Below are positions 7,044 to 22,736 of a DNA stretch of 32,000 nucleotides, piece by piece. Positions within the stretch are counted from its first letter, which is position 1, and the number at the start of each line of letters is the position of its first letter. The stretch lies in NCBI RefSeq assembly GCF_900635445.1, contig NZ_LR134117.1, forward strand, positions 2,443,311-2,475,310, given 5' to 3'. Under the pieces are notes generated by a model, which was not told the origin of the DNA, made no database searches, and saw only the letters and a program-made list of their open reading frames with translations. A program made the position numbers and the translations under genes. This stretch comes from Serratia odorifera. Lineage in GTDB: Bacteria > Pseudomonadota > Gammaproteobacteria > Enterobacterales > Enterobacteriaceae.

Positions 7044-8291
7044 TCAGGCCCGTGAGGTCGCACGCGTCAGCAGCATGCGGCTGAACAACACTCCCCCCGC
7101 CAGCAGCGTCAGCAATTGCGACGCGATCAGCACCGTAAACCCTGAAGAAACCTTGCCCTGACTGGCCATCACCATTCCCATGATCGTCGGCACAAATGCC
7201 GAGAACAGATTGCCGATGCCGTTGATCAGACCATAGGCGCTGCCCACCGCCTGCGGTTGGGCATAGTATTGCAGCAGAGTGGGGATTGCCGCGCCCTGCG
7301 CCCCCCAGCAGGCATTGGCCATCAACAGGAAAAACGCCATCCAGCCGAGCTGGTGGCTGTGCATGACGCCATAGATGCACAGCGCGGTTGCCGCGCCGCC
7401 AAAGGCGAAAATCAACGGCGCCTGATAGGGGCGGATAGCATCGAGCAGCACGCCCCCGAGATATTTTGAGGCGATGCTGACGACAAACGGCAGCGATGCC
7501 AACCATCCCATTTGTCTGATGGAAAACCCTTTCTCATCGGTCAGATAGGCCGGCAGCCAGGCGCTGGAGCCCCACAGATAGCTGAGAGTGGCGATCTCGA
7601 TCAGCATGATCCAACCGAGCATCGGCGTGCGCCAGGCCAGCACGAAGGTCTGCCAGACGCGCGCCAACGCCGCAGGCCTTGCGACGGCAGGCTGCGGTCG
7701 CAGGGGCGGGCGGATAAACAGCCGTACCAGCGTCAGTCCCAATAGCAGATTGATCGCCGCCAGCAGATAGAACGACATTGCCCAGCCGAAGTGCGCCATC
7801 AGGAAACTCACCAGTGGAAAGCCGATCACCAACCCCAGTGATACCCCCAGCGCACTGACCGCGTTGGGCTTGCCGCGTTCATCGGCGGCGAAGCGATCGC
7901 CGACGTACATGGTTTTCAGCGAAAACAGCGGCCCTTCGCTGGCGCCAAGCAGCGCGCGTACCGCCAACAGCAGCAGCAGTGAACCGGCCAGCGGCGAGGC
8001 GGCGGTGAGCAACGCCCACGGCACAATGCTCCACGTCAATGCACGGCGATAGCCCATCAAGGTTTCCAGGAACGGCGTCAACAACATGGCGGAAGCCCCG
8101 TAGCCGAGCAGAAACGCCGTCATCAACATTCCCTGATGCGCGCGGCTGCCGTCGAGCTGAAAGTGATGCAGGAAGTCGGGATTGACCAGCATCACGGCGA
8201 TATTTACCCGATCGGCGTAGGCGATAACGATCAAAAACAGCAGCGCGAGCACCCCGAACCAGCGTTGACGTTGTTGCACCCTGCGTTCCAT
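7044..8291 (-). CDS. MFS transporter (anion:cation symporter-like), 415 aa
   Basis: Intact track ORF with about 12 hydrophobic segments and the MFS loop motif (GYRRALTWS). Its N-terminal region DRVNIAVM parallels the cluster MFS at 14294. Confidence 0.85.
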   Translation of the reverse strand: MERRVQQRQRWFGVLALLFLIVIAYADRVNIAVMLVNPDFLHHFQLDGSRAHQGMLMTAFLLGYGASAMLLTPFLETLMGYRRALTWSIVPWALLTAASPLAGSLLLLLAVRALLGASEGPLFSLKTMYVGDRFAADERGKPNAVSALGVSLGLVIGFPLVSFLMAHFGWAMSFYLLAAINLLLGLTLVRLFIRPPLRPQPAVARPAALARVWQTFVLAWRTPMLGWIMLIEIATLSYLWGSSAWLPAYLTDEKGFSIRQMGWLASLPFVVSIASKYLGGVLLDAIRPYQAPLIFAFGGAATALCIYGVMHSHQLGWMAFFLLMANACWGAQGAAIPTLLQYYAQPQAVGSAYGLINGIGNLFSAFVPTIMGMVMASQGKVSSGFTVLIASQLLTLLAGGVLFSRMLLTRATSRA

Positions 8292-8595
8292 ACACGCTCC
8301 TGTAGCAAAAAGATCGCGACTTCAGACAGCAGAAAACCCGCCTGTCGCCGCCGCAGGGCGAAACAGGGGATTTAGCCTTGAAGTGTAAGTTTATTGTTAA
8401 TTGTGATGGTGGGTTAACCCTTGCCAGAGCTGTTTTACTCGCAGGTTACGACGCAAATCAACGCTTTTTTAACCCTGTTTTTGCGATGAAACACAGGTTA
8501 TTGATAGCTTTTTCATATCGGTGCATTTTTTCGTGATCCCCACCGCATTTGCAACTTTTAAATAACCAACCATTAACTTTTGCCGCGTTGCTCGC

Positions 8596-8623
8596 TTGAC
8601 GAAAGTTTCGCCAGACCTATAGT
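8596..8623 (+). promoter_or_regulatory. Candidate sigma70 promoter of the catabolic operon
   Basis: TTGACG (8596-8601), a 16-nt spacer, then TATAGT (8618-8623), about 60 nt upstream of the first gene (8685). Confidence 0.45.
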
Positions 8624-8646
8624 GGCTGTATTAAATAATAAACTGA

Positions 8647-8662
8647 GTTTCATATATGAAAC
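8647..8662. promoter_or_regulatory. Perfect 16-bp palindrome, candidate operator (IclR-type?)
   Basis: GTTTCATATATGAAAC lies between the predicted -10 and the RBS of the first gene. Related half-sites are ATGAAAC (8486-8492) and TTTCATAT (8511-8518) in the same divergent intergenic region. Confidence 0.35.
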
Positions 8663-8684
8663 AATCAGATAGAGGAACGAAGCA

Positions 8685-9002
8685 ATGAGCTGGAAGAACG
8701 TGTGCGAAGTATCACAGGTGAAAGAAGATTTCCCTTACTCGGCGACGGTAGACGGCAAAGAGATCGGCGTTTATCTGATCGATGGCCAATTTTACGCGCT
8801 GGAAGACGTCTGCCCACACGCCTATGCCTTGCTCAGTCAGGGGTTTGTTGATGACGGCAAGGTCGAATGTCCGCTGCACGAGGCGTTATTCGATGTGCGC
8901 ACCGGCAAGTGCCTGCGCGAACCCGGCGGCCGCGATCTGCACACCTTTCCCACCCGGGTGATCGACGATCGTATCCAGATCACCCTTATCGAGGAGGAGT
9001 AA
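8685..9002 (+). CDS. Rieske [2Fe-2S] ferredoxin component
   Basis: 105 aa with CPH (VCPHAYALL) and CPLH (ECPLHEALF) Rieske ligand motifs. RBS agaggaa. Confidence 0.85.
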   Translation: MSWKNVCEVSQVKEDFPYSATVDGKEIGVYLIDGQFYALEDVCPHAYALLSQGFVDDGKVECPLHEALFDVRTGKCLREPGGRDLHTFPTRVIDDRIQITLIEEE

Positions 9003-9005
9003 CCC

Positions 9006-9314
9006 ATGCAGCACATCACCGATTTCAATCCCTGGCTGCCGGACACCCAACAGGTGATCCCGGCGCGGGAGGGCGGCAACGGCCAGATCCATCAGCCAGG
9101 CCAGTATCAGAACGTTATCTGGCAAACCCGCGCCCGGGTACCGGACGGTTTTGAAACCGCTCTGGTCGCGGCGCTGGAGCAGATCTTCGATGCGGGTGCG
9201 GAACAGCTGGATCAGATTGTCAGCGCGCTCAACCAGCGTCGGTTGTTCGATCGTAACGGTCAGCCCTGGAGTGAAGCGGGGTTCCGTGAGTTCCTTCAGG
9301 TTAATGGTTTCTGA
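9006..9314 (+). CDS. Hypothetical protein (102 aa), translationally close-coupled in the oxygenase operon
   Basis: Starts 3 nt after the ferredoxin stop. I recognise no catalytic motif. The C-terminal LDQIVSALNQRRLFDRNGQPWSEAGFREFL loosely resembles recombinase-type HTH segments (tentative). Confidence 0.55.
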   Translation: MQHITDFNPWLPDTQQVIPAREGGNGQIHQPGQYQNVIWQTRARVPDGFETALVAALEQIFDAGAEQLDQIVSALNQRRLFDRNGQPWSEAGFREFLQVNGF

Positions 9315-9333
9315 GCAGCACAGGGAGAAGACA

Positions 9334-10377
9334 ATGACAGCAAACACAACATCCTGCGCGCAGACCGTGCAAGGCTATCTTGACCAGGGGTTACGCGGCA
9401 TGTGGTATCCGGTGCTGGCGAGTTGGGAAGTGGGCAATAATCCGCTGGGCATCACCCGTCTGGAGCAGCAAATCGTGCTGTGGCGCGACGGCGAAGGTGC
9501 GATCCATGCCTTGGAAGATCGCTGCCCGCACCGTGGCGCACGGCTTTCGATGGGGTGGAATCTTGGCGATCGTATCGCCTGCTGGTATCACGGCGTGGAA
9601 GTTGGCGGCGACGGTACGGTAAAGGATGTCCCGGCGGTGGATCGCTGTCCGCTGGTCGGGCAAAAATGCCTGCGTTCCTATCCGGCCAAAGAGGCCTACG
9701 GTGCGATATTCCTCTTTTTCGGCGTCACCGCCGACCAACCGCCCAGCGAACTGGCATTCCCGCAGGAACTGGCCGATGACGAGTCGTACAGCAACTTTCT
9801 GTGTACTGCCAGCTGGGACTGCAATTATCAATATGCGCTGGAAAACGTCATGGATCCGATGCACGGCACTTACCTGCATTCGTCCTCACACTCGATGGCG
9901 GACGGCGATCGCAAGGCCGATATGGCGTTGGAACCTACCGACAGTGGCTTTATTTTCAAGAAAAACGGCCAGATTGGCGTCAATTTTGACTGGGTGGAAT
10001 TTGGCAACAGTGGCGCGTACTGGATGCGTCTGTCGATCCCCTACAAAAAGCGCTTTGGGCCGGGTGGGCATTTCTGGATCATCGGCATGGTGGTGCCGGA
10101 AGACAAGGATCATTGCCGAGTGTTCTTCTGGCGCATTCGCAAGGTGCAGGACTGGCAGCGTTCGTTGTGGCGTTTCATGTACCGCAATCGCCTGGAGCAG
10201 CTGCATTGGGACGTGTTGGAGCAGGATCGCATCGTGCTGGAAAACATGGCGCCGAACGCGCGCGGCCGCGAGTATCTGTATCAGCACGACGTCGGGCTTT
10301 CTCGCCTGCGCCGCATGATGCAAAAAGAAGCGCAAAGGCAGCTGGCGCAGCTCCATGAGCTGGAGGCCGCGCAGTGA
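9334..10377 (+). CDS. Rieske non-heme iron oxygenase, catalytic (alpha) subunit, no beta subunit
   Basis: From ATG 9334 (RBS agggagaag): MTANTT... Rieske motif CPHRGARLSMG...CWYHG; mononuclear iron motif ENVMDPMHGTYLH (E-x3-D-x2-H-x4-H). Confidence 0.85.
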   Translation: MTANTTSCAQTVQGYLDQGLRGMWYPVLASWEVGNNPLGITRLEQQIVLWRDGEGAIHALEDRCPHRGARLSMGWNLGDRIACWYHGVEVGGDGTVKDVPAVDRCPLVGQKCLRSYPAKEAYGAIFLFFGVTADQPPSELAFPQELADDESYSNFLCTASWDCNYQYALENVMDPMHGTYLHSSSHSMADGDRKADMALEPTDSGFIFKKNGQIGVNFDWVEFGNSGAYWMRLSIPYKKRFGPGGHFWIIGMVVPEDKDHCRVFFWRIRKVQDWQRSLWRFMYRNRLEQLHWDVLEQDRIVLENMAPNARGREYLYQHDVGLSRLRRMMQKEAQRQLAQLHELEAAQ

Positions 10378-11129
10378 ATGGCCTGCTGAGCGGCAAACGC
10401 ATTGTGGTGACCGGCGCCGCGCGCGGGCTGGGGCGCAGTTTTGCCGAGGCCATTGCCAGGGCCGGTGCCAGCGTGGTGATGTGCGACATCCTGGCAGATG
10501 AACTGCACGCCGGCGCAGCGACGCTGCGAGAACAAGGTGCGCAGGTAGAAGCGCTGGCGTTCGATCTGGCCGATCCGGCATCGATTGGCAACGCATTCGA
10601 CGCCATTGCCAAGGGCGGCGCGCTGGATGGGCTGGTGAACAACGGCGCGCTGGCGACCGGAGTCGGCGGCAAAACCATGATGGAATATGATATCGATCTG
10701 TGGGATCGGGTAATGCAAGTCAACGTGCGCGGTACCTGGCTGGTCAGTCAGGCAGCGGTGCCGCTGTTGGCGCAACGGCCGCACGCCAAAATCGTCAACG
10801 TGGCATCAGACACCGCCCTGTGGGGGGCACCGCGCCTGATGGCCTACGTTGCCAGCAAGGGGGCTATCGTGTCGATGACCCGTTCGATGGCGCGCGAGCT
10901 GGGTGAGCTGGGGATCTGCGTCAACGCCATTGCGCCGGGGTTGACGCGGGTCGAAGCCACCGAATATGTGCCGGCCGAGCGTCACCAGCTGTACGAGCAG
11001 GGCCGTGCACTGCCCGGCGCGCAGCATCCCGATGATGTCACCGGCAGTGTGCTGTACCTGCTGTCACCGCTGGCGAACTTTGTCACTGGACAACTGTTGC
11101 CGGTCAACGGCGGCTTTGTATTCAACTAA
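10374..11129 (+). CDS. Short-chain dehydrogenase/reductase
   Basis: GTG start overlaps the upstream TGA (GTGA). It has TGAARGLG cofactor and YVASK catalytic motifs. Confidence 0.85.
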   Translation: MNGLLSGKRIVVTGAARGLGRSFAEAIARAGASVVMCDILADELHAGAATLREQGAQVEALAFDLADPASIGNAFDAIAKGGALDGLVNNGALATGVGGKTMMEYDIDLWDRVMQVNVRGTWLVSQAAVPLLAQRPHAKIVNVASDTALWGAPRLMAYVASKGAIVSMTRSMARELGELGICVNAIAPGLTRVEATEYVPAERHQLYEQGRALPGAQHPDDVTGSVLYLLSPLANFVTGQLLPVNGGFVFN

Positions 11130-11159
11130 TCGCGTCAAGCGAGAGATAAGGATCCGAGC

Positions 11160-11954
11160 ATGGCAGACGAACAAGCGTGTAAATATCTGATCCCGGGATT
11201 GGATCGCGGTTTGCAACTGTTGCTGGCATTTGGCGAGCAGCACAAGGAAATGACCTTTGCAGAATTACATCGCCTGGTCGACATGCCCAAGGCTACCGCC
11301 TACCGCGTGGTGCAAACGCTGGAGCATTTGGGCTTCCTCGAGCGTAATCCGCGCACCAACACCTTCGCGTTGGGCATCAAGGTATTGCGGCTCGGTTTCG
11401 AGTATATCGCGTCGCTGGACGTGGCGCAGGCCGGACAGCCGGTGATCGAACAGCTGCGCGATCGCAGCCAGTGCAGCAGCCATCTGGCGATCCGCGATGA
11501 GCGCGACGTGATCTACATTGCTCGCGTTAGCGCCGCCGGCTCGCAGATCAACCAGGTCAGCGTCGGTACTCGCCTGCCGGTGCATCAGACCTCGCTGGGC
11601 CGCATGTTGCTGACCAGCACTTCGCGCGCCGAATTTGACCTGCTGTACCCGGATGAAAGCTTGCCGGACAACGCGCCGGGAGCACCGACCAGCCGCGAAG
11701 CGCTGTGGCAGATGGTGCAGCAGGATAAAGCGCGCGGCTACGTGATCGGCGAATCGTTTTTCCGTCACGGCATTTCGTCGATCGTCTATCCGATCTTCAA
11801 CCGTGAACAGCGGGTGGAAGCGGTAGTGAGCATCATGGTGCCGTTCGATCAGATCCCGACGGCGGATCGCGAACGGCTGCGGATGGAAGTTCGCGATGCG
11901 GCGGAAAAGATCTCCGGTTTCCTCGGCGCCGCGCCACAGGCCAACGTCGGATAA
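11160..11954 (+). CDS. IclR-family transcriptional regulator
   Basis: 264 aa with an N-terminal wHTH (LDRGLQLLLAF...MTFAELHRLVDMPKATAYRVVQTLEHLGFLER) plus a C-terminal effector domain. RBS aagga. Confidence 0.85.
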   Translation: MADEQACKYLIPGLDRGLQLLLAFGEQHKEMTFAELHRLVDMPKATAYRVVQTLEHLGFLERNPRTNTFALGIKVLRLGFEYIASLDVAQAGQPVIEQLRDRSQCSSHLAIRDERDVIYIARVSAAGSQINQVSVGTRLPVHQTSLGRMLLTSTSRAEFDLLYPDESLPDNAPGAPTSREALWQMVQQDKARGYVIGESFFRHGISSIVYPIFNREQRVEAVVSIMVPFDQIPTADRERLRMEVRDAAEKISGFLGAAPQANVG

Positions 11955-12053
11955 CACCTATTTACTCAGGCAGAGATGAGGTTCCTGATGCACAGGGGCC
12001 TGGGGGCGATCGTGCCTGAAAACAGCATTCAGCGAGAACGTGAGGCAGAAAAG

Positions 12054-12983
12054 ATGAGCGTAATCGGTATCGAAAAACTGGAATTTGGCGTTGAAGATCT
12101 GTCAGCGTGCGCAAAATTCATGCAAGACTTCGGCCTGCAGGCCAGCGCCGGCAATGGCGCAGAGTTCACCACGCTGAGCGGTGCCCGCGTGGCGTTACAT
12201 CCGCTGGCAAGCAGCGAACTGCCGCCGGCGTTCGAGGCCGGCTCCACGCTGCGCCGCATGACCTGGGGCGTGGCCGACTCGGCACAGCTGGCGGCGCTGG
12301 CGTCAAGATTGGCGCAGCAGCCGGGCTTTCGCCAACGGGATGATGCGCTGGAGTGCCGCGATCCCAATGGCATGACGCTGCGCATTATCGTCAGCCAACA
12401 GCGCGACGTGTCGCTGCCGGTGTCGCCGATCAACCAGTGGGGCGACGTGCGGCGCATTGATGAGCCCAGCCCGGTCTATGCGCAGGCGCAGCCGATCAAC
12501 ATCGGCCACGTGGTGTTCTTTGTCGAAGATCTGGCGGCCACCGAGCGTTTCTACTGCGATTTGCTGGGCTTCCAGGTGTCTGACCGCTACATCGATCGCG
12601 CGGTCTTTCTGCGCACACAACCGCGTGGTGGCCACCATAACCTGTTCCTGCTGAAATTGCCGAACCGGCCGCGTGGCCTCAACCATGTGGCATTCACCGT
12701 GCGTGACATTCACGAAGTGATTGGCGGCGGGCTGGCGATGAATAAACAGCAGTGGAGCACTTTTATCGGCCCCGGTCGTCACCCGATTTCTTCTGCCTAT
12801 TTCTGGTATGTCAATAGCCCGACCGGCGGCGCGTTCGAGTATTACACCAACGACGATTTTCTGACGGAAAACTGGCAGCCGCGCGAACTGGAGCATTCGC
12901 TGGTGTCGTTTACCGAATGGGCGGTAGAAGGGGGGATCGATCATGATACCCGCCGCCAGCACAAACCGGTGAATGCGTTATGA
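12054..12983 (+). CDS. Two-domain VOC-family extradiol ring-cleavage dioxygenase
   Basis: From ATG 12054: MSVIGIEKLEFGVEDL... Candidate H/H/E metal ligands are IGHVVFFV, LNHVAFTV and GAFEYYT. The longer track ORF (11976) lacks an RBS. Confidence 0.8.
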   Translation: MSVIGIEKLEFGVEDLSACAKFMQDFGLQASAGNGAEFTTLSGARVALHPLASSELPPAFEAGSTLRRMTWGVADSAQLAALASRLAQQPGFRQRDDALECRDPNGMTLRIIVSQQRDVSLPVSPINQWGDVRRIDEPSPVYAQAQPINIGHVVFFVEDLAATERFYCDLLGFQVSDRYIDRAVFLRTQPRGGHHNLFLLKLPNRPRGLNHVAFTVRDIHEVIGGGLAMNKQQWSTFIGPGRHPISSAYFWYVNSPTGGAFEYYTNDDFLTENWQPRELEHSLVSFTEWAVEGGIDHDTRRQHKPVNAL

Positions 12984-14190
12984 GCCCGATACCTGATGCG
13001 GGCATGGTGATCGTCGGCGGCGGTCAGGCCGGCGGCTGGGCGGCGAAAACGCTGCGCGATCGCGGTTACACCGGCCGGCTGTCGGTGGTGAGTGACGAAC
13101 CCTATGACTTTTATGAACGTCCGCCGCTGTCCAAGGCGGCGCTGCTCGACGCTAACGCACCGCTGAGCCGTTTGTTCAGTGAGTCGGCGGTGGCAGCGCT
13201 GAACATTGACTGGTATCGCCCGCTACGCGCCGAACAGATTGATGCGCAGGCACAGACGGTAACGCTCAGTGACGGCCGACGGTTGCGTTTTACCCAGCTG
13301 TTGATCGCCACCGGTGGTCGACCGCGCCTGCCGGATGCCCGCTGGGCCGCACAGCCACAGGTCATGACGCTGCGCTCGTGGGATGACGCCGCGCGGCTGC
13401 GCCAGGCGCTGCAACAGAGCCGCCGGTTGGCGATTGTCGGCGGTGGCTGGATCGGGCTGGAGATTGCCGCTTCGGCGCGCAAGCTCGGTGTGGAAGTGAC
13501 GGTGTTCGAGCGCCAGCCGGCCCTGTGCATGCGCAGCGTCGGTGCCGAGGTTTCGCAGGCGCTGTTGGAACTGCATCAGCAGCAGGGCGTTACCCTGCAC
13601 TGCGACTGCGGCGAGATAACGCTGGCACAGCGCGACGGCGCGGCGTGGCTGGGTAGCGCGGTCAGTGCGCAGCAGCCATTTGATTTGGTGGTGGTCGGTA
13701 TCGGTGTGGAACTGAACCTGGAACTGGCACGCAGCGCCGGATTGCAGATTGAGGGCGGCATTGTAGTGGACGGGCAGGGGCGTACCAGCCACCCGGCGAT
13801 TTTCGCGCCGGCGACGTGGCGCGCCATCCGACGCTTGGCCTGTGTCTGCAGTCGTGGGCCTATGCACAAAACCAGGCGATCAGCACCGCCTGCGCCATGC
13901 TGGATGCCGCCGCCGCGCCTTACGACGACGTGGCCTGGCTGTGGTCGGATCAATACGACGCCAATATTCAGATCCTTGGCGTGCCAACCGGCGGGGTGCA
14001 TCAGGTGGTGCGCCGCACGCCGCAGTCGCAGCTGTTTTTTACCCTGAATGCCGATCGGCAACTGGTGCAAATGGTGGCATTCAACGACGCGCGCGCCATC
14101 AAGCTCGGCAAACGCTGGTTAGCCAGCGGTCGGGTATTGGATCCGCAGCAATTGGCGGATGCGGAATTTTCTCTGATGGCGTTGAAATAA
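12980..14190 (+). pseudogene. FAD/NAD(P)H ferredoxin reductase component, apparent 1-nt deletion
   Basis: ATGA overlap with the dioxygenase. It has VIVGGGQAGG and AIVGGGWIGLE dinucleotide folds. The frame breaks at ttcgcgccggcgac (~13806-13809), where IFA|AGDVARHPTLGLCLQSWAYAQNQA is expected. It continues in track ORF 13816..14190. Confidence 0.8.
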
Positions 14191-14293
14191 TTCCCCGCTG
14201 CCTGCCGCGTAACGGCCAGACGGCAACGCGCCTCCTCGGTTAAGCCACGAGGAAGGCGCCGCGGGCAGGCCTGGGAAAAACCGGGAGCGTTTC

Positions 14294-15551
14294 ATGACTA
14301 CGCAACATATTGACACCCGCGCTGGTCGGGTGGGGGAAACCGTTGTCGAAAATCAGCCGCAGCGGGTGCGCTGGTCGGTGCCGATGGCGCTGTTTGCCTG
14401 CGTATTGCTGGCGTTTTTTGACAAGATCAGCATTGCGGCGCTGTTTTCCGACAGCGCATTCCAGCAGGCGTTGGGCATCAGTTTTGATCCGACGCGGCTT
14501 GGCTTGCTGATGAGCGCCTTCCTGTTTTCCTACGGATTTTCGTCGATGCTGTTAAGCGGCATCGGCGATCGGCTGAACCCGACCAAGGTGCTGGTCGGCA
14601 TGATGATCGTCTGGGGGCGTGCTGATGGTGCTGATGGGGCTGACGCGCTCTTACCACACCATGATGACGCTGCGCATCCTGCTTGGCATTGCCGAAGGGC
14701 CGTTGCTGCCGATGGCCTACGCCATCATTCGCCAGGCTTTTCCCCAGCGTTTGCAGGCGCGTGCCACCATGCTGTGGCTGCTGGGGACGCCGCTCGGTGC
14801 GGCGCTCGGCTTCCCGGTCACGTTGTTTATTCTCAACACCTTCAACTGGCAGGCCACCTTCTTCTTTATGGCGTTTCTGACGCTGCCGGTGATGCTGCTG
14901 GTGCTGTTCGGTCTGCGTCATCTGCAGGTACAACGGGAGGAAAAAACGCAGCAAACCCTGCCGGCAGAACGCCGACAGCATCGTCGCGCACTGCTGCGTA
15001 ATCCGCACTTCTGGATGATCTGCCTGTTCAATATCGCCTTCCTCACCTACCTGTGGGGGATGAACGGCTGGCTGCCGAGTTATCTGATCAAGGGTAAAGG
15101 CATCCATCTGGAACACGCCGGCTATCTGTCTTCGCTGCCGTTTATCGCCATGCTGCTGGGGGAAGTGCTGGGGGCGTGGCTGTCGGACAAGCTGGATCGT
15201 CGCGCGCTGGCCTGCTTTTTCTCGCTGGGTGGCGCAGGGCTGGGGTTGGCGGCGGTGCTGCATTTGCATGGTACCTACAGCGTGATTGCCGCCATGGCGT
15301 TCAGCACCTTCATGTGGGGCGCCGGCGCGCCGAACATTTTCGCCCTGCTGGCGAAGGCGACCAGCAGTAAGGTGAGCGCCACCGCCGGCGGCATTTTCAA
15401 TGGATTGGGCAATTTTGCCGGCGCGTTGGCGCCGGTGCTGATGGGGGCGTTGATCGCCGCTACCAGCAACATGGATAACGGCCTGTTGTTCCTGGTGGTG
15501 ATGGCCTTTGTCGGCTGCATCATTCTGCTGCCGTTACTGAAGAAATACTGA
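14294..15551 (+). pseudogene. MFS transporter of the catabolic cluster, apparent 1-nt insertion
   Basis: Track ORFs 14294..15001 and 14619..15551 join at the G5 run 14613-14617 (MMIVWG|VLMVLMGLTRS). Length minus 1 nt is 419 codons. Confidence 0.8.
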
Positions 15552-15579
15552 GTGAGCCACGTAATTAAGGAGTGAAACC

Positions 15580-16107
15580 ATGTCACAGATTGAGCAAAAA
15601 ACCGCGATCAAGCCGCAGGATATGACCATGGCGAACTGGGTGGAATCACGCATCGCCCGTTTTGAAGGTCGTAAATATGACTGGAACGCGCTGAAGGTTC
15701 CAGGCGGATTTCGATGCCAAATACCGCCGTGCGCAGATGCGCTACATCGGCACCGGCGCTACCGGCGTCGCCAGCGACGTTAACACCGTGCCCGCCGGCA
15801 ACTTCACCTTCTCGACCATGGTGCTGCCGTCGAAATGCGAAGGGCCGCTGCATTTGCACGACGACGTTGAAGAAGTGTTCTTCATGCTGAAAGGCAGCAT
15901 CACGCTGATGATTCAGGACGGCGAGCGTATTACGAAACGGTGCTGAAAGAGCGCGATCTGATTTCGGTACCGGCAGGCATTTATCGCGGCCTGTTTAACC
16001 ATGGCGAAGAAGAGGCGCTGATGTGCGTGATGCTCGGCACCGCCAAGCCGGAAATCCCGACCTATCCGGCGGACCATCCTTTGTCGAAAGTGAAGCGCAA
16101 CGGATGA
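15580..16107 (+). pseudogene. Cupin-domain protein, two apparent indels (+1 and -1)
   Basis: Cupin motif GPLHLHDDVEEVFFMLKG. There is an insertion at aaGGttc (15696-15697) and a deletion near 15927-15930. The repaired product ends ...GTAKPEIPTYPADHPLSKVKRNG* (TGA 16105-16107). Confidence 0.7.
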
Positions 16108-16921
16108 ACGCATTGCCGGAACGCCGACAGGCGAACTGTAACGGCCATCTGTTGAGCTGGCGCGAAGCCGGGCAGGGCCGACCGGTAGTGTTGCTGCATG
16201 GTATCAGTTCCGGCTCGGCGTCATGGGTGAAGCAGTTGACCGACGCGCGCCTGGCTGCCGGGCATCGGTTGATCGCCTGGGATGCGCCGGGTTATGGCGG
16301 CAGCGCGCCGCTGGCCGACGCTCAGCCGGATGCCGCCGCTTACGCCCGCGCGTTGGCGGCGCTGATCGACCATTTGCAACTGGCGCAGCCCCTGGTGATC
16401 GGCCATTCGCTGGGCGCGCTGATTGGCAGCGCCTATGCGGCGGAGTATCCGTATGGCCTGAACGGCTTGGTGCTGGCGGATCCGGCGCAGGGTTATGGCA
16501 GCGCAACGGCAGAAAACGCCGGCAGGTTTATCAGCAGCGCCAGCAGATGATGGCAACGCTGGGGCCGCAGGGTTACGGCGAACAACGGGCGGCGGCGTTG
16601 TTACGTGAAGGCGCCGACCCGCAGGATATTGCCTGGGTGCAGAGCGCTATGCGGCAGCTCAATCCACCGGTTTTCTCAGCGCCGCCTGGATGTTGGCCAA
16701 TGACGATATCGGCGCTTATTTGATGCGTTATCGCGGCCCGTTGCAGGTGTGGTGCGGCGACGTTGACCAGATTACACCACCGGCAGGCGGCAGGCGAACT
16801 GGCACAACGGCAGGATGCCGAACTGCGGTTGATAACCGATGCCGGACACGCCAGCTACCTTGACGCGCCGTCGGTGTTTAACCGTTATATGCAGGAATTT
16901 ACGAGGGCAATCCAAGCATGA
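16104..16921 (+). pseudogene. Alpha/beta-fold hydrolase (meta-cleavage-product hydrolase-like), three apparent indels
   Basis: ATGA overlap with the cupin. It has HGISSGSASW and a nucleophile elbow GHSLG. Deletions lie at the A4 run 16513-16516 and near 16664-16668, with an insertion near 16785-16788. It ends ...DAGHASYLDAPSVFNRYMQEFTRAIQA* (TGA 16919-16921). Confidence 0.75.
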
Positions 16922-17713
16922 ATTTCCAGATAGAGGGACGGGTAGCGGTCGTGACCGGCGGCTCCTCGGGCATCGGTTTCGAAACCCTGCGGCTGTTGCT
17001 GGCGGAAGGCGCGCGGGTGGCGTTCTGCGGCCGCAACCAGGACAAGCTTGACGCCGCGCTGGCGCAGCTGCGCGAGGCGTTTCCGCAGGCGGAGATCGTC
17101 GCCGCACGTTGCGATGTGCTGGACGCCGCGCAGGTGGCGCAATTTGCCGCCGAGGTCACGCAGCGCTTCGGCGGCGTGGACATGCTGATCAACAACGCCG
17201 GGCAGGGCTTTGTTGCCGATTTTGAGCAAACGCCGCGCGAGGCCCTGGCTGCATGAAGCCGAACTGAAACTGTTCGGCGTTATCAATCCGCTGCAGGCGT
17301 TCCTGCCGGCGCTGGAGCGCTCGGACATCGCCTCGATCACCTGCGTCAACTCTCTGCTGGCGTTACAGCCGGAAGAGCACATGATCGCCACCTCGGCGGC
17401 GCGTGCGGCCTTGCTGAACATGACGCTGACATTGTCAAAACAGCTGGTCGACAAAGGTATTCGGGTTAATTCGATTCTGCTGGGCATGGTGGAGTCTGGT
17501 CAATGGCGTCGCCGCTTTGCCGAGCGTAGCGACCAGCAGCAGAGCTGGGAGACGTGGACGGCGGCGATCGCCGAGCGGCGAGGCATCCCGATGAAGCGAT
17601 TGGGTAAACCGCAAGAGCCGGCGCGGGCGTTGCTGTTCCTGGCGTCGCCGATGGCCTCCTTTACCACCGGAGCGGCGCTGGACGTGTCCGGCGGCTTCAA
17701 CCGACATCTGTAA
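16918..17713 (+). pseudogene. Short-chain dehydrogenase/reductase, apparent 1-nt insertion
   Basis: ATGA overlap with the hydrolase. MNFQIEGRVAVVTGGSSGIGFE... An extra C in ggCCCtgg (17243-17245) splits it into track ORFs 16918..17256 and 17210..17713. Confidence 0.8.
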
Positions 17714-17725
17714 GCAGGAGCGACA

Positions 17726-18514
17726 ATGAAAAAGATCATGATGATCGGCTACGGTGCGATGGCAAAAGAAGTGCTGGCGCGTTTGCCGCAGGGGGTCGTG
17801 CCAGGGTGGATCGTGGCGCGTGACGCACATCATGCAGCGATTGCCGAAGCCTATGGCGATCGGGTGCCGGCGTTGACCGATCCGGCGCAATGTGACGGCC
17901 GGCCGGATCTGGTGCTGGAGTGCGCCAGCCAGCAGGCGGTGGCGGAATTTGGCGAAGCGGTGGTGCAGCGCGGCTGGACGCTGGCGGTGATTTCAACCGG
18001 CGCGCTGGCGGACGCGGCGCTGCAATTACGCATTCAGCAGGCCTGCCAACGCCACCACGGGCGGTTGTGGGTGCTGTCTGGTGCCATTGCCGGTATGGAC
18101 GGGCTGGCGTCTGCGCGCGAGGGCGGGTTGGAGAGCGTGACCTATCAGGCCAGCAAAAGCCCGGCCAGCTGGCGCGGCAGCCTGGCGGAAAAACTCATTG
18201 ATCTGGATGCGGTCAGCGAAACGCGGGTGTTCTTTGACGGCACGGCGCGCGAGGCGGCACGGCTGTTCCCGGCCAATGCCAACGTTGCCGCCACCATCGC
18301 CCTGCATGGCGTGGGGATGGATGCTACCCGGGTTCGTTTGCAAGTGGATCCGCATACCCGCCACAACAGTCATCAATTACGGGTCAGCGGCCGCTTTGGC
18401 GAATTCCAGATGCAGCTGAGCGGCAATCCGTTGGCCGGCAACCCGAAAACCTCGACGCTGGCGGCGTTAAGCGCGGTGCAAGCCTGCCGCCGTTTGGTCG
18501 ACGGCGGCTGCTAG
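17726..18514 (+). CDS. L-aspartate dehydrogenase family (NadX-like) protein
   Basis: 262 aa: MKKIMMIGYGAMAKEV (Rossmann), ...SGAIAGMDGL..., ...NVAATIALHG...HQLRVSGRFGEFQMQLSGNPLAGNPKTS..., typical of the aspartate dehydrogenase domain family. RBS aggag. Confidence 0.75.
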   Translation: MKKIMMIGYGAMAKEVLARLPQGVVPGWIVARDAHHAAIAEAYGDRVPALTDPAQCDGRPDLVLECASQQAVAEFGEAVVQRGWTLAVISTGALADAALQLRIQQACQRHHGRLWVLSGAIAGMDGLASAREGGLESVTYQASKSPASWRGSLAEKLIDLDAVSETRVFFDGTAREAARLFPANANVAATIALHGVGMDATRVRLQVDPHTRHNSHQLRVSGRFGEFQMQLSGNPLAGNPKTSTLAALSAVQACRRLVDGGC

Positions 18515-18538
18515 CTGCCGAACTGTAGGAGTCATAGC

Positions 18539-20011
18539 ATGGAAACGTTAAAGATCTTCCTGGCCGGGCGCTGGCGTGAAGGGCGCGGCGAACTGATGCA
18601 ATCGCGATTCCCGGCCGACGGCTCGCTGAATGCCGAACTGCATGCGGCCAACCTCGACGACGTCAACGATGCGGTTGCGGCAGCGGAACGCGCCTGGCGT
18701 GCGCCTGAATGGCGGCAGCAGCTACCCGCACCAGCGGGCGGCGATCCTGCAGCGCGTCAGCGAGCTGATCGTCGAGCAGTTGGAGCCGTTGGCGCAGTTG
18801 CAAACCCGCGACAACGGCAAACCGCTGGCAGAAACCCGTGGACTGGTGGCCAGCGCGGCCGCCACCGCGCGTTATTTTGCCGCCGCCTGCGAAGTGCTGG
18901 AGGGTGAACTGCCCACCCAGCGCAGCCACGATGCGATGACGCTCAGCCAGTACCAGCCGCTGGGGGTGATCGCCGCCATTACGCCGTGGAATTCACCGAT
19001 TGCCAGCGAAATGCAGAAAGTGGCTCCGGCACTGGCGGCGGGCAATGCGGTGATCCTCAAACCCGCTGAAGCGACGCCGCTGATGGCGCTCAAACTGGCG
19101 GAACTGTTTGAACAGGCCGGATTGCCGGCCGGTTTACTCCAGCGTGTTGCCGGGCAAGGGCTCGGTGATTGGCGAAGCGCTGGCGCGTCACCCTTTGGTG
19201 AAAAAAATTTCGTTTACCGGCGGTACCAGCACCGGCCGCCATTTGGCGCACGTAGCGGCAGAAAAGCTGATCCCGACCTCGCTGGAGCTGGGGGGCAAGT
19301 CGCCGACCATGGTATTGGCAGACGCGGATCTGGAGCAGGCGGCGCGTGGCATCTGCTACGGCATTTTCAGTTCCGCCGGGCAGGCGTGCATCGCCGGTTC
19401 GCGGCTGTTCGTGCACCGTTCGCTGTACCAGCCGTTGCTGGCGCGGCTGTGCGAACTGGCGAGTGGGCTGCGCGTCGGCAACCCGTTACAACCGGGGGTA
19501 CACCTTGGCCCGCTGATCAATGCCCGCCATCGGCAAAGCGTGGCCGATTACGTCGCGCTGGCGCAGCAGGAAGGCGGGCGAGTGCTGATCGGCGGCGAGA
19601 TACCGGCGGATCCGCAACTGGCGAACGGCAGCTACTACCTGCCAACAATTATTGAGGGGCTGAATAACGAGGCCCGGGTGTGTCAGGAAGAAATTTTTGG
19701 TCCGGTGCTGGTGGCGATGCCGTTCGACGATGAAGCACAGCTGATTGAAATGGCCAACGATTCGGTTTACGGGCTGGCGGCGGGCATCTGGAGCCGTGAT
19801 TTTCCGCGGGCGATGGCGCTGGGCGTCGCAGTTGGAAACCGGCACCGTGTGGATCAACACCTATAAGACGTTCTCGATCTCGACGCCGTTCGGCGGCTTT
19901 AAACACAGCGGCCTGGGGCGTGAAAAAGGGCTGCACGGCATCAAGGCGTATATGCAGCAAAAGAGCGTGTATCTGGCATTAAACCACCAGATCAACCGCT
20001 GGAGCGACTAA
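18539..20011 (+). pseudogene. NAD(P)-dependent aldehyde dehydrogenase, three apparent 1-nt insertions
   Basis: ELGGKSP and FSSAGQACIAGSR (catalytic Cys) motifs. The frame steps +1 near 18712-18716, at ctCCagc (19139-19140) and at ctGGGcg (19821-23), linking track ORFs 18539.., 18630.., 19108.. and 19745..20011. Length minus 3 nt is 490 codons. Confidence 0.85.
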
Positions 20012-20063
20012 GCGTCAATTGGTACAGATGATTACTTTTGCATACCCTCATAAAAGAAGGCAG

Positions 20064-21707
20064 ATGATGAGCGATAAAATAACGGTAGGCGAGGCGATAG
20101 CCCGGACTCTGGAGCACTACGCGGTGTCGGCGATTTACGGCATCATCTCGATCCACAATCTGCCGATTGCCGACGCCGTCGGGCAGCGCGGGGCGATCCG
20201 CTTTGTGCCGGCGCGCGGCGAAGCGGGGGCGGTGACCATGGCAGACGCGCATGGACGGTTTTCTGGCCTGGGCGTGGCGCTGACCAGCACCGGTGCGGGC
20301 GCCGGCAATGCGGTCGGGGCAATGATTGAAGCGCTGAACGCCAACACGCCGCTGCTGCATATTACCGGTCAGGTGGAAAAAGCCTATCTTGACGCCGACG
20401 CCGGGTTTATCCACGAAACCAAAGACCAGTTGGGCTTCCTGCGCGCCTGTTCAAAAGCGGCCTATCGCGTCAATTCACCGGAACAGGCGGTGGCGGTGAT
20501 CCAGCGTGCAATCCAGCAGGCGCAGACCGTGCCGTGCGGTCCGGTGGCGGTAGAAATCCCGATTGATATCCAAAGTAGCCTGGTGTCGAGTGCGGTGCTG
20601 ACGCCGGCACGCTTGCCGCCCGCGCTGCCAGCAGCGGACGACGCCGCGGTAGAACGGCTCTATCAACGCCTGCGTGCGGCCAAACGTCCGCTGCTGTGGT
20701 TGGGGGGCGGCGCGCTATCCTGTGCGCCTGCGGTGAAGCAACTGGCGGACGCCGGGGTTGCGGTGATCTCCAGTACCCACGGGCGCGGCATTCTGCCAGA
20801 CAGTCACCCGCGCAGCCTGCGGGCGTTCCATAATTCGCCGAGCATAGAAAAAATACTCAACCGCTGTGATTTGACACTGGTGGCCGGATCGCGGTTGCGC
20901 AGTAACGAAACCCGCACCTGGACGTTGCCGCTACCGCGCCCGCTGGTGCAGATTGATATCGATCCGGCGGCGGCCAACCGCAACTATCTGGCCGACGAAC
21001 AGATCAACGGCGATTGCGCAGCCTTGCTGAGCGCGTTGGCGGCGCGTTATGCACCGCACGCCCGGGTGGATGCCGCATGGGATGCCGACATCGCCGCAGC
21101 GGTGCAGCAGGCGGAAACGGCGTTGCGCCAGCAGTCCGGCGAATACGTCAAGTTGAACGATGCCATCGCCGCAGCGCTGCCGAACGACGGTCTGCTGGTG
21201 CGTGATATCACCGTTTCAGGCAGCGTGTGGGGCAGTCGGCTGTTCCGCGCCGTGGCGCCGCTGTGCAACATCCATTCGCTGGCCGGGGCGATTGGTCTGG
21301 GGCTGCCGATGGCGATCGGCACGGCAATCGCCAACCCGCAGCGTAAGGTGGTCGGCCTGGTGGGGGATGGCGGTCTGGCTCTGGGACTGGGAGAACTGGC
21401 CACCATGGCGCAGGAACAGGCCAACATCACCCTGCTGATCATGAACGACGGCGGGTATGGTGTGATGCGCGGTATTCAGGACAAGTACTTTGCTGGCCGT
21501 CAGTATTACAATGAGCTGCATACGCCAGCGTTCGCGCAGGTAGCGCAAGCCATGGGGATCAAGGCCTGGAAGGTTGACGATGCGGCGCAGTTCAACGGCG
21601 TGCTGGCGGAAGCGATCAACTACCCGGGACCGACGGTGGTGGAGGTGGAGATGAAACGCGTCGGGCCACTGACCTTTGCCGGCCCGCCGCAGAAAACCCT
21701 GTATTGA
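20064..21707 (+). CDS. Thiamine-diphosphate-dependent enzyme (acetolactate synthase / 2-oxoacid decarboxylase-like)
   Basis: Intact. ThDP motif GDGGLALGLGELATMAQEQANITLLIMNDGGYG. The likely start is ATG 20064/20067 after gaagg; the track ORF extends to 20019. Confidence 0.85.
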   Translation: MMSDKITVGEAIARTLEHYAVSAIYGIISIHNLPIADAVGQRGAIRFVPARGEAGAVTMADAHGRFSGLGVALTSTGAGAGNAVGAMIEALNANTPLLHITGQVEKAYLDADAGFIHETKDQLGFLRACSKAAYRVNSPEQAVAVIQRAIQQAQTVPCGPVAVEIPIDIQSSLVSSAVLTPARLPPALPAADDAAVERLYQRLRAAKRPLLWLGGGALSCAPAVKQLADAGVAVISSTHGRGILPDSHPRSLRAFHNSPSIEKILNRCDLTLVAGSRLRSNETRTWTLPLPRPLVQIDIDPAAANRNYLADEQINGDCAALLSALAARYAPHARVDAAWDADIAAAVQQAETALRQQSGEYVKLNDAIAAALPNDGLLVRDITVSGSVWGSRLFRAVAPLCNIHSLAGAIGLGLPMAIGTAIANPQRKVVGLVGDGGLALGLGELATMAQEQANITLLIMNDGGYGVMRGIQDKYFAGRQYYNELHTPAFAQVAQAMGIKAWKVDDAAQFNGVLAEAINYPGPTVVEVEMKRVGPLTFAGPPQKTLY

Positions 21708-21711
21708 AACC

Positions 21712-21732
21712 GGGCGAGGCCAGGCCTCGCCC
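21712..21732. terminator. GC hairpin between convergent ThDP-enzyme gene and loiP
   Basis: gggcgaggcc-a-ggcctcgccc has perfect 10-nt inverted arms. No clear U-tract is present on either strand. Confidence 0.4.
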
Positions 21733-21739
21733 CCAGGGG

Positions 21740-22497
21740 TTATTTACCTGCCGCAATGCGCTCGCGGATGTGCTGCGCGCGCGCTTCCGAGGACGGGTGG
21801 TCGTCAAACATGCTGCTTTGACGGCCGGCTTCCATCTTGGCCAGTTTTTTCGAAGCTGGTCACCAGGCCGTTCGGGTCAATGCCGCGTTTTTTCAGCAGA
21901 TCGAAGGAATAGTCATCCGCTTCGCTCTCCTGCTTTTGCGAGAACTGGGCGCTGACCAGCTTTTCGCCGATATCGGCCAGCTGCGACTGGTGACAGGGAG
22001 CCGATAATGCCGCCGGTAGAGGCCGCTGCCGGTGCGCAGAGCAACGGTGCCGTAGGCAACCTGCATCGCCTTGCGGGTATGACCCAGCGCCACGTGGCCC
22101 ATTTCATGACCCAGTACGCCTTCCACTTCGTTGTCGTTCATCATGTCCATCAGCCCCGCTGTAAACGCGGATACAGCCGTTGGCCATTGCCCAGGCATTG
22201 ACGTCTTTCGTCAGGTAAACCTTATAGTTGGCCGGCGTGCCGTCGATATTGTCGCCCAGCGCCGCCGCGATTTTATTCAGACGTTTGGCATAGGAGCTGT
22301 CGGCCGGCGCGATTTGTGCCTTGCTGTCCATCTCGGCGCAGGATTTTACACTTAACGTTTTTACGTCGTCATTGCTTAGCGTTGCCGCTTGAAACGCCTG
22401 TGCGCCAGACTGCCATCAGGGTATTGGTATCGAGGTTTTGACAGCCGCTTACCAAGGTGGCAATGCTTAATGCAATCAAAGAAGTACGAATTTTCAT
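21740..22497 (-). pseudogene. loiP: M48-family metalloprotease lipoprotein LoiP/YggG, five apparent 1-nt insertions
   Basis: MKIRTSLIALSIATLVSGC (lipobox) ... HEMGHVALGH (HExxH) ... DDHPSSEARAQHIRERIAAGK*. Extra bases lie in plus-strand runs 22413-14, 22153-56, 22029-32, 21989-90 and 21845-50. The 758 nt minus 5 gives 251 codons. Confidence 0.85.
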
Positions 22498-22736
22498 GAA
22501 GCCATCTTCCTGTGATAGTAACAAGGGGAACGTGTGATTTTAGCTGAAACAATCGGGTTGCAAGAGCCCTAGTGTAGCTTGGCGCGGTGTGAAATAGTGA
22601 TATTCCGAAAATCAGCCGATTGGTGCTAATAAGTCGTGAACTCGCTCCTCATTTGGCATTAGGGATTGCCGTTTTAATACGGAGTCTGAGAAAATAGAAA
22701 ACTTGACTGCTTTTTTAATCCGACCTGGAGTAAAAC

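Follow-up and report, generated by a model that had tools for sequence, protein, structure and literature searches.

A conserved aromatic-degradation operon in Serratia odorifera with kynurenate as a possible substrate

What does a bacterium break down with an operon that combines a Rieske oxygenase and an extradiol dioxygenase with an aspartate dehydrogenase? This question is raised by a cluster of 14 genes in Serratia odorifera, located in a stretch of 32,000 nucleotides (assembly GCF_900635445.1, contig NZ_LR134117.1, positions 2,443,311 to 2,475,310; hereafter the window, to which all positions refer unless a locus number is given) of a closed 5.27 Mb chromosome with 56% GC, deposited as one contig of 99.98% completeness. 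An earlier note on this DNA, made from the letters alone, had left the substrate unassigned and had suspected a conserved orphan pathway. Most likely, the cluster is a single IclR-controlled operon that, together with a divergent second transporter, serves for the uptake and complete oxidative breakdown of its substrate. The latter may be a nitrogen-containing aromatic carboxylate, most probably kynurenate (4-hydroxyquinoline-2-carboxylate), an assignment that we make tentatively and with chances just short of even.

Profile searches with Pfam and NCBIfam as well as inspection of the translations recovered every component named in the earlier note on the plus strand between 8685 and 21707 (Table 1). 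The motifs quoted there (the Rieske CXH...CXXH pattern, E-x3-D-x2-H-x4-H and the GHSLG elbow) can all be read in the sequence, as can the ATGA/GTGA overlaps at the junctions at 10374, 12980, 16104 and 16918. The extent of the locus stands at 14 genes in this direction, to which a 15th has to be added, i. e. that of a transporter of the major facilitator superfamily (MFS) on the opposite strand.

The first half had been described as a classical hydroxylation and meta-cleavage design, a reading supported by the Rieske system, the coupled short-chain dehydrogenase/reductase (SDR1) and the iron ligands of the dioxygenase of the vicinal oxygen chelate (VOC) type. The translated oxygenase shows CPH-x16-CWYH and E-NVM-D-PM-H-GTYL-H and thus combines Rieske and mononuclear iron motifs with a VanA_C domain in one subunit, as is typical of the alpha-only phthalate/VanA type; no small (beta) subunit domain was found anywhere in the cluster by Pfam profile searches. 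Dedicated genes for a ferredoxin (at 8685) and a reductase (at 12980) accompany the oxygenase. The nearest NCBIfam models of the ferredoxin, AndAb and HcaC, both score below cut-off, the reductase is HcaD/AndAa-like, and in Cupriavidus and Oceanobacter a PDR/VanB-type reductase takes the place of the ferredoxin/reductase pair. In the PDB, the oxygenase has distant, N-terminal-only matches, the best being CarAa (E 6e-21, spanning only ~185 N-terminal residues), followed by phthalate dioxygenase and the dicamba demethylase DdmC. Its solved relatives include enzymes for the N-heterocycles carbazole, 2-oxoquinoline and methylxanthines, and its orthologues in gamma- and betaproteobacteria, 60-93% identical, are all generically named. 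SDR1 directly follows the oxygenase in nearly all cluster loci, the exception being Novosphingobium. Homoprotocatechuate 2,3-dioxygenase is the best NCBIfam and PDB match of the VOC enzyme (E 1e-15 to 1e-20), which keeps the residues aligned with the iron triad H155, H214 and E267 of that enzyme and with its H248. Judged by these 2-His-1-carboxylate ligands, it is predicted to be a type I two-domain extradiol dioxygenase. A small HTH_62 protein adjoins the oxygenase in nearly all loci, across classes, and is retained even on a plasmid of Cupriavidus pauculus on which a PDR/VanB-type reductase replaces ferredoxin and reductase; a sequence search of the PDB returned no relative of this protein, and a literature search for HTH_62/PF20552 yielded no paper.

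The second half had been said to lie outside the textbook lower pathways, and its six enzymes indeed match no named NCBIfam pathway; the two equivalog matches, PRK07062 for a second SDR (SDR2) and PRK07064 for the thiamine diphosphate (ThDP) enzyme, carry generic names only. The ThDP enzyme, present as a single copy in the host genome, scores 818 bits against NF005470 (cut-off 495), with an unnamed subfamily (PRK08266, 312 bits) and the 5-guanidino-2-oxopentanoate decarboxylase subfamily (277 bits) as the next-best models. Because the closest functionally named subfamily is that of a 2-oxo-acid decarboxylase, such a role appears plausible here as well. A Variovorax homologue of this enzyme was set aside, as it sits in a different, CoA-dependent cluster. 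The aspartate-dehydrogenase-family protein (AspDH) clearly belongs to its family (NF009828, 388 bits against a cut-off of 177; L-aspartate dehydrogenase 2dc1 in the PDB, E 1e-32), and in the loci examined its gene always sits in the catabolic cluster between SDR2/ThDP and the aldehyde dehydrogenase (ALDH). For orthologues from Pseudomonas aeruginosa and Klebsiella, aspartate dehydrogenase activity has been measured. Other genes of the AspDH family (36-43% identical; Ralstonia and sampled gammaproteobacteria) lie in unrelated contexts and were uninformative.

For ALDH, no NCBIfam model reaches its cut-off, the models of HpaE and StyD giving high scores below it, and the alpha/beta hydrolase bears a weak likeness to meta-cleavage-product hydrolases (PcaD, HsaD and BphD models, all below cut-off). 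The cupin is 68-82% identical across classes and has an invariant H-x-H-x3-E motif (H91, H93, E97). SDR2, scored on the S. proteamaculans orthologue, reaches 438 bits against NF005468 (cut-off 266), weakly resembles 3-hydroxybutyrate dehydrogenases and matches 3lf1 (E 3e-91), deposited as ‘Short Chain Oxidoreductase Q9HYA2’. This is the one close relative from PDB sequence searches with oxygenase, VOC enzyme, AspDH, cupin, ThDP enzyme, SDR2 and HTH_62 protein, which otherwise gave distant or generic relatives. The match names no organism; we take Q9HYA2 to be the P. aeruginosa PA3507 orthologue, which would fit the Pseudomonas gene neighbourhoods mentioned in the earlier note, and likewise assume that the PAO1 neighbourhood PA3504-3509 is a relative of the cluster.

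A conserved orphan pathway is supported by recurrence of the gene set across taxa and by the fact that no characterised homologous pathway was found. Lack of co-conservation had been named beforehand as an observation that would speak against it, and the neighbourhood comparison shows the genes to be tightly co-conserved. Order and strand are identical in ~60 Enterobacterales loci, one Neisseriaceae genome and Acinetobacter. A rearranged, near-complete set occurs in Halomonas, Saccharospirillum, Oceanobacter, Burkholderia gladioli, Dyella and Marinobacterium, and further in Caballeronia and Cupriavidus plasmids, Novosphingobium, Aquabacterium, an alphaproteobacterial metagenome-assembled genome and one more genome. 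Gaps concern the metagenome-assembled genome, which has no ALDH, and Novosphingobium, for which neither ferredoxin nor reductase is tabulated. Only transporter type, reductase type and regulator position vary among the loci. Co-occurrence was counted in one even sample, 301 genomes from the host's family, with the ThDP enzyme scored at its curated cut-off. The oxygenase is present in 37 of them and the ThDP enzyme in 35 of these 37; wherever both positions were printed, the two genes share contig and strand at a distance of 10-11 kb. Not one of the 264 genomes that lack the oxygenase has the ThDP enzyme. Of the two genomes with the oxygenase only, one is 78% complete, with the match on a ~2-kb contig, and the other measures 2.7 Mb. 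The 12-protein core consists of nine enzymes, ferredoxin, reductase and HTH_62 protein, travels with the IclR regulator and a variable transporter, and is co-inherited in hundreds of bacterial species, including major hospital pathogens as well as insect and plant associates.

Regulation and transport fit a single unit. A promoter-like site with 10 of 12 matches to the sigma-70 consensus, the best within 8200-22100, is followed by the perfect palindrome GTTTCATATATGAAAC, which lies 22 nt before the first start codon. Among the Enterobacterales loci that were fetched with the oxygenase, ~50 have the identical 16-mer immediately before the ferredoxin gene, and with up to 3 mismatches it is found at that position in 60 of 80 loci (L002-L081), although identity in the flanking DNA is no higher than 75-83%. 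Neisseriaceae, Providencia, Acinetobacter, Burkholderia and Cupriavidus have variants of it. Most simply, this palindrome would serve as operator for the IclR protein encoded in the cluster, which scores 156 bits, below cut-off, against TIGR02431. With an IclR gene inside the cluster and a conserved palindrome, albeit a predicted site, at its promoter, the locus has the features of an IclR-regulated operon, and the protein would be expected to rest on the palindrome and to be released when the substrate or an intermediate is present. Indirect support for co-transcription comes from the location of the genes on one strand, from the junctions that overlap and from a predicted operator in common. 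Additional operator half-sites, ATGAAACA and TTTCATAT, were noted ~135-170 nt upstream (8486-8518), toward the divergent MFS gene, and in Klebsiella and Enterobacter loci one or two further palindromes, degenerate in sequence, precede the main one by 270-315 nt. The divergent transporter has orthologues at the same position in Serratia (83-88% identity) as well as in Klebsiella, Enterobacter, Raoultella and Kluyvera (57-61%). Its counterpart inside the cluster falls into the D-galactonate-transporter subfamily TIGR00893. Across taxa, uptake is entrusted to an MFS transporter (of the anion:cation symporter type), a tripartite ATP-independent periplasmic (TRAP) transporter, a tripartite tricarboxylate transporter (TTT) or an NMT1-type ABC transporter, in some cases with a porin or a TonB receptor.

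Four constraints on the substrate can be drawn from this enzyme set. Since every transporter type seen is a carboxylate type, the substrate should be a carboxylate. Rieske oxygenase, coupled SDR and VOC enzyme point toward a sequence from arene via cis-dihydrodiol to catechol and extradiol fission. As AspDH is the only nitrogen-handling enzyme, one nitrogen would leave as aspartate or iminoaspartate, and because a second conserved metalloenzyme of the ring-opening type, the cupin, is always present beside the VOC enzyme, a bicyclic substrate is suggested. Kynurenate would satisfy all four. Bacterial degradation of this compound, described in the early 1960s, opens with the reactions EC 1.14.99.2, EC 1.3.1.18 and EC 1.13.11.10. 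In the pathway worked out for pseudomonads by the Hayaishi laboratory (1961-63, also called the ‘quinoline’ pathway), these first three reactions require exactly the three enzyme types that are encoded first in the operon. The likeness is one of enzyme classes, and no gene sequence was found assigned to the pathway.

A route for kynurenate could then run as follows. The acid would be imported by the MFS transporters and converted into the cis-7,8-dihydrodiol by the oxygenase with its ferredoxin and reductase, which would thus represent kynurenate 7,8-dioxygenase, the orphan EC 1.14.99.2. SDR1 would act as cis-dihydrodiol dehydrogenase and re-aromatise the product to 7,8-dihydroxykynurenate (EC 1.3.1.18), whose carbocycle may be cleaved by the VOC enzyme between positions 8 and 8a (EC 1.13.11.10) to yield 5-(3-carboxy-3-oxopropenyl)-4,6-dihydroxypicolinate. 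Conceivably, SDR2 saturates the side-chain double bond, before the ThDP enzyme removes CO2 from the 2-oxo acid and ALDH oxidises the aldehyde formed. The Fe(II) cupin could then open the remaining 4-hydroxy-2-pyridone ring beside the substituted carbon, and the alpha/beta hydrolase would cut the resulting N-acyl product into 2-oxoglutarate and iminoaspartate (2-aminofumarate). Finally, AspDH may reduce iminoaspartate to L-aspartate or, alternatively, interconvert aspartate with oxaloacetate and ammonia. The carbon would be accounted for (5 + 4 + 1 as CO2 = 10), with the six remaining enzymes just sufficient after ring fission. That the operon is the kynurenate pathway with two such unprecedented steps, i. 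e. a pyridone-opening Fe(II) cupin and an AspDH that captures ring-derived iminoaspartate as L-aspartate, is a reasonable possibility, if not a probable one.

Physiological reports lend some colour to this proposal. According to a 2023 review, kynurenic acid alone can supply carbon and energy for growth of Acinetobacter baumannii AYE and ATCC 19606 (PMC10732645, citing Breisch et al. 2022). The full cluster is present in A. baumannii. Glutamate, alanine and acetate are given as end products of Pseudomonas extracts in another review (PMC11354673, citing Horibata 1961), which is compatible with formation of 2-oxoglutarate and aspartate by the proposed lower half. The marine strains described below would also fit, if their sulfatase and hydroxylase provide a second entry to the same catechol, for example from xanthurenate 8-sulfate; these enzymes would equally fit other sulfated phenolic acids. 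Serratia marcescens 2CC-1 is reportedly able to use quinaldic acid via kynurenic acid, a statement for which our literature search found nothing.

Several points weigh against kynurenate. The assignment rests on enzyme classes and retro-chemistry, no characterised enzyme is a close relative of the oxygenase, and the fold search with the cupin was uninformative (AlphaFold model with pLDDT 67; Foldseek matches to generic metal cupins only). The order of the steps from SDR2 to AspDH is our own construction and could differ, and an SDR that acts as ene-reductase would be unusual. A search of the host genome detected neither a tryptophan 2,3-dioxygenase nor a kynureninase, so that any kynurenate must be exogenous. 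A gene resembling tryptophan 2,3-dioxygenase occurs near the cluster in one locus only, that of Marinobacterium sedimentorum (L189, 298-2602), 6.5 kb upstream and with an unclassified class-V aminotransferase-fold gene as partner instead of a kynureninase; as it scores 172 bits, below the tryptophan 2,3-dioxygenase cut-off, and the pairing was seen nowhere else, it was rejected as evidence. Furthermore, the passage that reports growth of A. baumannii names no gene (PMC10732645), and enzymes of these classes could also serve other carboxylates of the quinoline, indole or amino-aromatic kind.

The last point defines the most serious competitor, according to which the same operon acts on another nitrogen-containing (hetero)aromatic carboxylate, such as quinaldate, xanthurenate, a further hydroxyquinoline- or indole-carboxylate or an acid of the aminobenzoate type. 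The enzyme classes that suggest kynurenate apply here equally, the nearest solved oxygenase relatives include enzymes for carbazole, 2-oxoquinoline and methylxanthines, and the accessory sulfatase, phenol hydroxylase and glycoside hydrolase of some taxa hint at substrate forms that are phenolic and conjugated. However, kynurenate alone among these candidates has a described route via dihydrodiol, catechol and extradiol fission, and it alone has a growth report in a carrier species (PMC10732645). A monocyclic amino-aromatic compound, moreover, would have no need of two ring-opening enzymes and would normally be served by a deaminase instead of an AspDH-family enzyme. On balance, we consider a different acid of this kind unlikely, though well worth keeping in view.

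A nitrogen-free aromatic acid would require that the AspDH-family protein does not perform aspartate or iminoaspartate chemistry. In line with such a substrate, the IclR protein belongs to the PcaR/PobR type, homoprotocatechuate dioxygenase is the closest match of the VOC enzyme and ALDH scores high, if below cut-off, against HpaE and StyD. Yet, AspDH exceeds its subfamily cut-off more than twofold (388 against 177 bits) and its gene is invariably part of the set, while the functions of HpaF, HpaG, HpaH and HpaI are not encoded, which renders this explanation improbable. Most improbable of all is an aromatic amino acid or analogue (Phe-, Tyr- or DOPA-like) that would undergo dihydroxylation, meta-cleavage and C-C hydrolysis to L-aspartate, to be deaminated by AspDH, and a C5 fragment, to be turned into acetoacetate by ThDP decarboxylase, ALDH and SDR2: the analogy to the hca/mhp pathway, in which 3-phenylpropionate yields succinate so that a 2-amino analogue would give aspartate, and the weak resemblances of the hydrolase to meta-cleavage-product hydrolases and of SDR2 to 3-hydroxybutyrate dehydrogenases are outweighed by the transporters, all of carboxylate and none of amino-acid type, by a conserved Fe(II) cupin left without a role, by an alpha-only oxygenase unrelated to HcaE and by the missing hydratase and aldolase.

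Close homology to a pathway already characterised would likewise have spoken against the orphan status, and in the databases and full-text literature searched we found neither such a pathway nor a substrate assignment for the cluster. None of 240 listed oxygenase homologues has an experimentally assigned function, their labels being generic or homology-derived (e. g. ‘aromatic ring-hydroxylating dioxygenase subunit alpha’ or ‘phenylpropionate dioxygenase-like’), and the RefSeq names of the A. baumannii, Caballeronia, Cupriavidus and Novosphingobium copies are generic as well. Delftia and Comamonas, which are said to use kynurenate, do not appear among the best 120 oxygenase homologues listed. 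The uncharacterised clusters of A. baumannii and K. pneumoniae share 44-82% protein identity with that of S. odorifera, and the order is the same in Acinetobacter and Klebsiella. In A. baumannii ATCC 17978, A1S_0956-0958 correspond to the aspartate dehydrogenase, ALDH and ThDP genes and are ~2-fold mucin-induced in an expression table; in the literature, PA350x and A1S_095x locus tags turned up in expression tables only. The sources searched assign no sequence to the three EC numbers of kynurenate breakdown, which date from the 1960s, and the full-text literature searched assigns no genes to the process; a 2024 review knows only the 1961 Pseudomonas work (PMC11354673). Pseudomonas putida KT2440, once engineered to produce kynurenic acid, accumulates the compound (bioRxiv 10.1101/2024.10.04.616593).

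Among the characterised pathways compared, the upper half of the cluster is of familiar design, whereas the lower half matches none. The carbazole system CarAa/CarAc/CarAd likewise comprises an alpha-only Rieske oxygenase, a ferredoxin of the Rieske type and a separate reductase; it acts on an N-heterocycle and is followed by meta-cleavage and hydrolysis. In contrast, the car operon relies on the two-subunit LigB-type CarB instead of a VOC enzyme and has no SDR, cupin, AspDH, ALDH or ThDP genes. With the hpa pathway, the cluster shares a VOC enzyme closest to HpaD/HPCD with its metal ligands kept and an HpaE-like ALDH, but the scores remain below the respective cut-offs (HpaD 74 against 321 bits, HpaE 452 against 638), and genes for the isomerase, decarboxylase, hydratase and aldolase of that pathway are missing. 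Membership in the hca/mhp pathway is not supported either (HcaE model 27 bits, cut-off 830; neither a beta subunit nor a hydratase or an aldolase in the cluster), and the riboflavin/lumichrome pathway was discarded, as its enzymes are others, namely a P450, a xanthine oxidase and a Rieske enzyme of the alpha-beta type. NadX from NAD biosynthesis (Thermotoga, Archaeoglobus) has the same fold and family as the cluster AspDH, which differs in that it is encoded in a catabolic operon and not with nadA/nadC, and in that it belongs to a distinct subfamily model (PRK13303.1-3).

Some orthologous loci carry further genes. In Halomonas and Saccharospirillum (L076 13245-18999 with L082; L070 with L083), genes for an arylsulfatase-like enzyme, a group-A flavin phenol hydroxylase resembling 3-hydroxybenzoate-6-monooxygenase and a TRAP transporter lie inside the cluster, between the oxygenase module and the rest. 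Plasmid pSA2 of Novosphingobium resinovorum (L193, 8711-12936) has genes for a TonB-dependent receptor and a glycoside hydrolase of family GH3 directly upstream of ThDP-AspDH-ALDH, an arrangement that points to possible use of a substrate glycoside in this organism. A two-subunit molybdopterin hydroxylase (2Fe-2S plus molybdenum cofactor) with its own IclR gene and a TTT binding protein is found beside the cluster on the C. pauculus plasmid (L191, 21916-24523) and could feed an N-heterocycle into the route. Finally, a contig end in a record titled Pseudomonas lundensis I31 (L096) bears the whole cluster with proteins mostly 94-100% identical to those of S. proteamaculans (89% for the ThDP enzyme), which suggests assembly contamination or a very recent transfer.

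Does the S. odorifera copy itself still function? Compared with intact orthologues from ten Serratia species and with the 95%-identical Serratia sp. AKBS12, it shows 11 single-base indels in the genes for reductase, MFS transporter, cupin, hydrolase, SDR2 and ALDH (Table 1). Very likely, these are assembly errors in a poorly polished stretch and no sign of gene decay, to judge from the alignments: the indels are missing from AKBS12, base duplications predominate and purifying selection appears undiminished. Seven of the 11 insert a second copy of the neighbouring base, and the other four each delete a single nucleotide; AKBS12 has none of them, and the frames are open in all other species examined. 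Disregarding the indel columns, the ratio of synonymous to non-synonymous codon differences to AKBS12 is 57/6 for ALDH, 31/5 for the MFS transporter and 18/1 for the cupin, compared to 91/11 for the intact ThDP gene. Alternatively, the indels could be real and the operon an array of recently inactivated pseudogenes in this strain, as eleven frame-breaking changes across six genes in a genome given as one closed contig of 99.98% completeness might suggest. Besides the substitution pattern and the intact genes of the relatives, the absence of large deletions, stop-codon substitutions and insertion sequence elements among the changes seen leaves this option little probability, as does the continuation of the indels, even denser and all of them +1 insertions, into a housekeeping region downstream. 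There, at 21730-24334, ~20 more single-base insertions relative to AKBS12, nearly all duplications of the adjacent base, hit genes labelled loiP, tktA and dmlA in the first reading of the window. All in all, the stretch rich in indels thus runs from ~13.8 to ~24.3 kb. A long-ORF coverage metric for the genome-wide frameshift density proved insensitive at this GC content. Within the affected stretch, a GC-rich insertion of 79 nt between the reductase and MFS genes (14196-14274) is missing from ten other Serratia species, AKBS12 having a related, slightly longer sequence there. It can form a long hairpin (−50 kcal/mol, z −2.3), occurs once in the genome and matched no family of repetitive extragenic palindromes within it; an Rfam scan of the locus gave no match.

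Table 1. Genes, predicted control sites and single-base indels of the cluster (window positions; domains as found by profile searches)
Feature	Position	Strand	Basis or remark
MFS transporter, second	7044..8291	−	Pfam MFS_1, E 9e-42; divergent from shared control region
Sigma-70-like promoter TTGACG-16-TATAGT	8596..8623	+	Consensus match only
Perfect 16-bp palindrome GTTTCATATATGAAAC	8647..8662	.	Probable operator of the cluster IclR regulator
Rieske-type [2Fe-2S] ferredoxin, 105 aa	8685..9002	+	Pfam Rieske, E 4e-21
HTH_62 protein, 102 aa	9006..9314	+	Pfam PF20552, E 4e-21
Alpha-only Rieske non-haem-iron oxygenase, 347 aa	9334..10377	+	Pfam Rieske and VanA_C
SDR1, 251 aa	10374..11129	+	Pfam adh_short_C2, E 1e-52; GTGA-coupled to oxygenase
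IclR-family regulator, 264 aa, PcaR/PcaU/PobR-like	11160..11954	+	Pfam HTH_IclR and IclR_C
Two-domain VOC extradiol dioxygenase, ~309 aa	12054..12983	+	Pfam Glyoxalase; alternative start 11976
FAD/NAD ferredoxin reductase, 403 aa in relatives	12980..14190	+	Pfam Pyr_redox_2 and Reductase_C, two frames
Reductase indel	near 13805	+	1-nt deletion
MFS transporter, anion:cation symporter type, 420 aa in relatives	14294..15551	+	Pfam MFS_1, two frames
MFS indel	14613	+	1-nt insertion
Monocupin, ~175 aa	15580..16107	+	Pfam Cupin_2 on intact orthologues
Cupin indels	15696; near 15923-15926	+	Insertion; deletion
Alpha/beta hydrolase (GHSLG), ~272 aa	16104..16921	+	Pfam Abhydrolase_1
Hydrolase indels	near 16512-16516 and 16665; near 16784-16786	+	Deletions; insertion
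SDR2, 264 aa	16918..17713	+	NCBIfam PRK07062 equivalog
SDR2 indel	17243	+	Insertion
AspDH-family protein, 262 aa, intact	17726..18514	+	Pfam Asp_DH_C and NAD_binding_3
ALDH, 489 aa in relatives	18539..20011	+	Pfam Aldedh over four frames
ALDH indels	18725, 19139, 19821	+	Insertions
ThDP enzyme, 546 aa, intact	~20067..21707	+	Three TPP_enzyme domains; NCBIfam PRK07064 equivalog

Taken together, the S. odorifera copy is an unremarkable representative of a widespread family, and the assembly around it is locally rich in errors. For the genome record, this means that ~10 kb (~13.8-24.3 kb of the window) were probably mis-assembled or insufficiently polished. The value of the locus lies in the family: a widespread 12-protein core to which no substrate is assigned constitutes a clear annotation gap, and the cluster makes the question of kynurenate breakdown, now more than 60 years old, directly testable. 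Kynurenic acid is a host receptor ligand and abundant in the gut lumen, bile, insects and honey. If the proposed assignment is true, Klebsiella, Serratia, Enterobacter, A. baumannii and P. aeruginosa would be able to consume an immunomodulatory and neuroactive tryptophan metabolite of their hosts. It would also explain why NadX-like genes occur in catabolic clusters of mesophilic bacteria, and thousands of genomes could be re-annotated at once.

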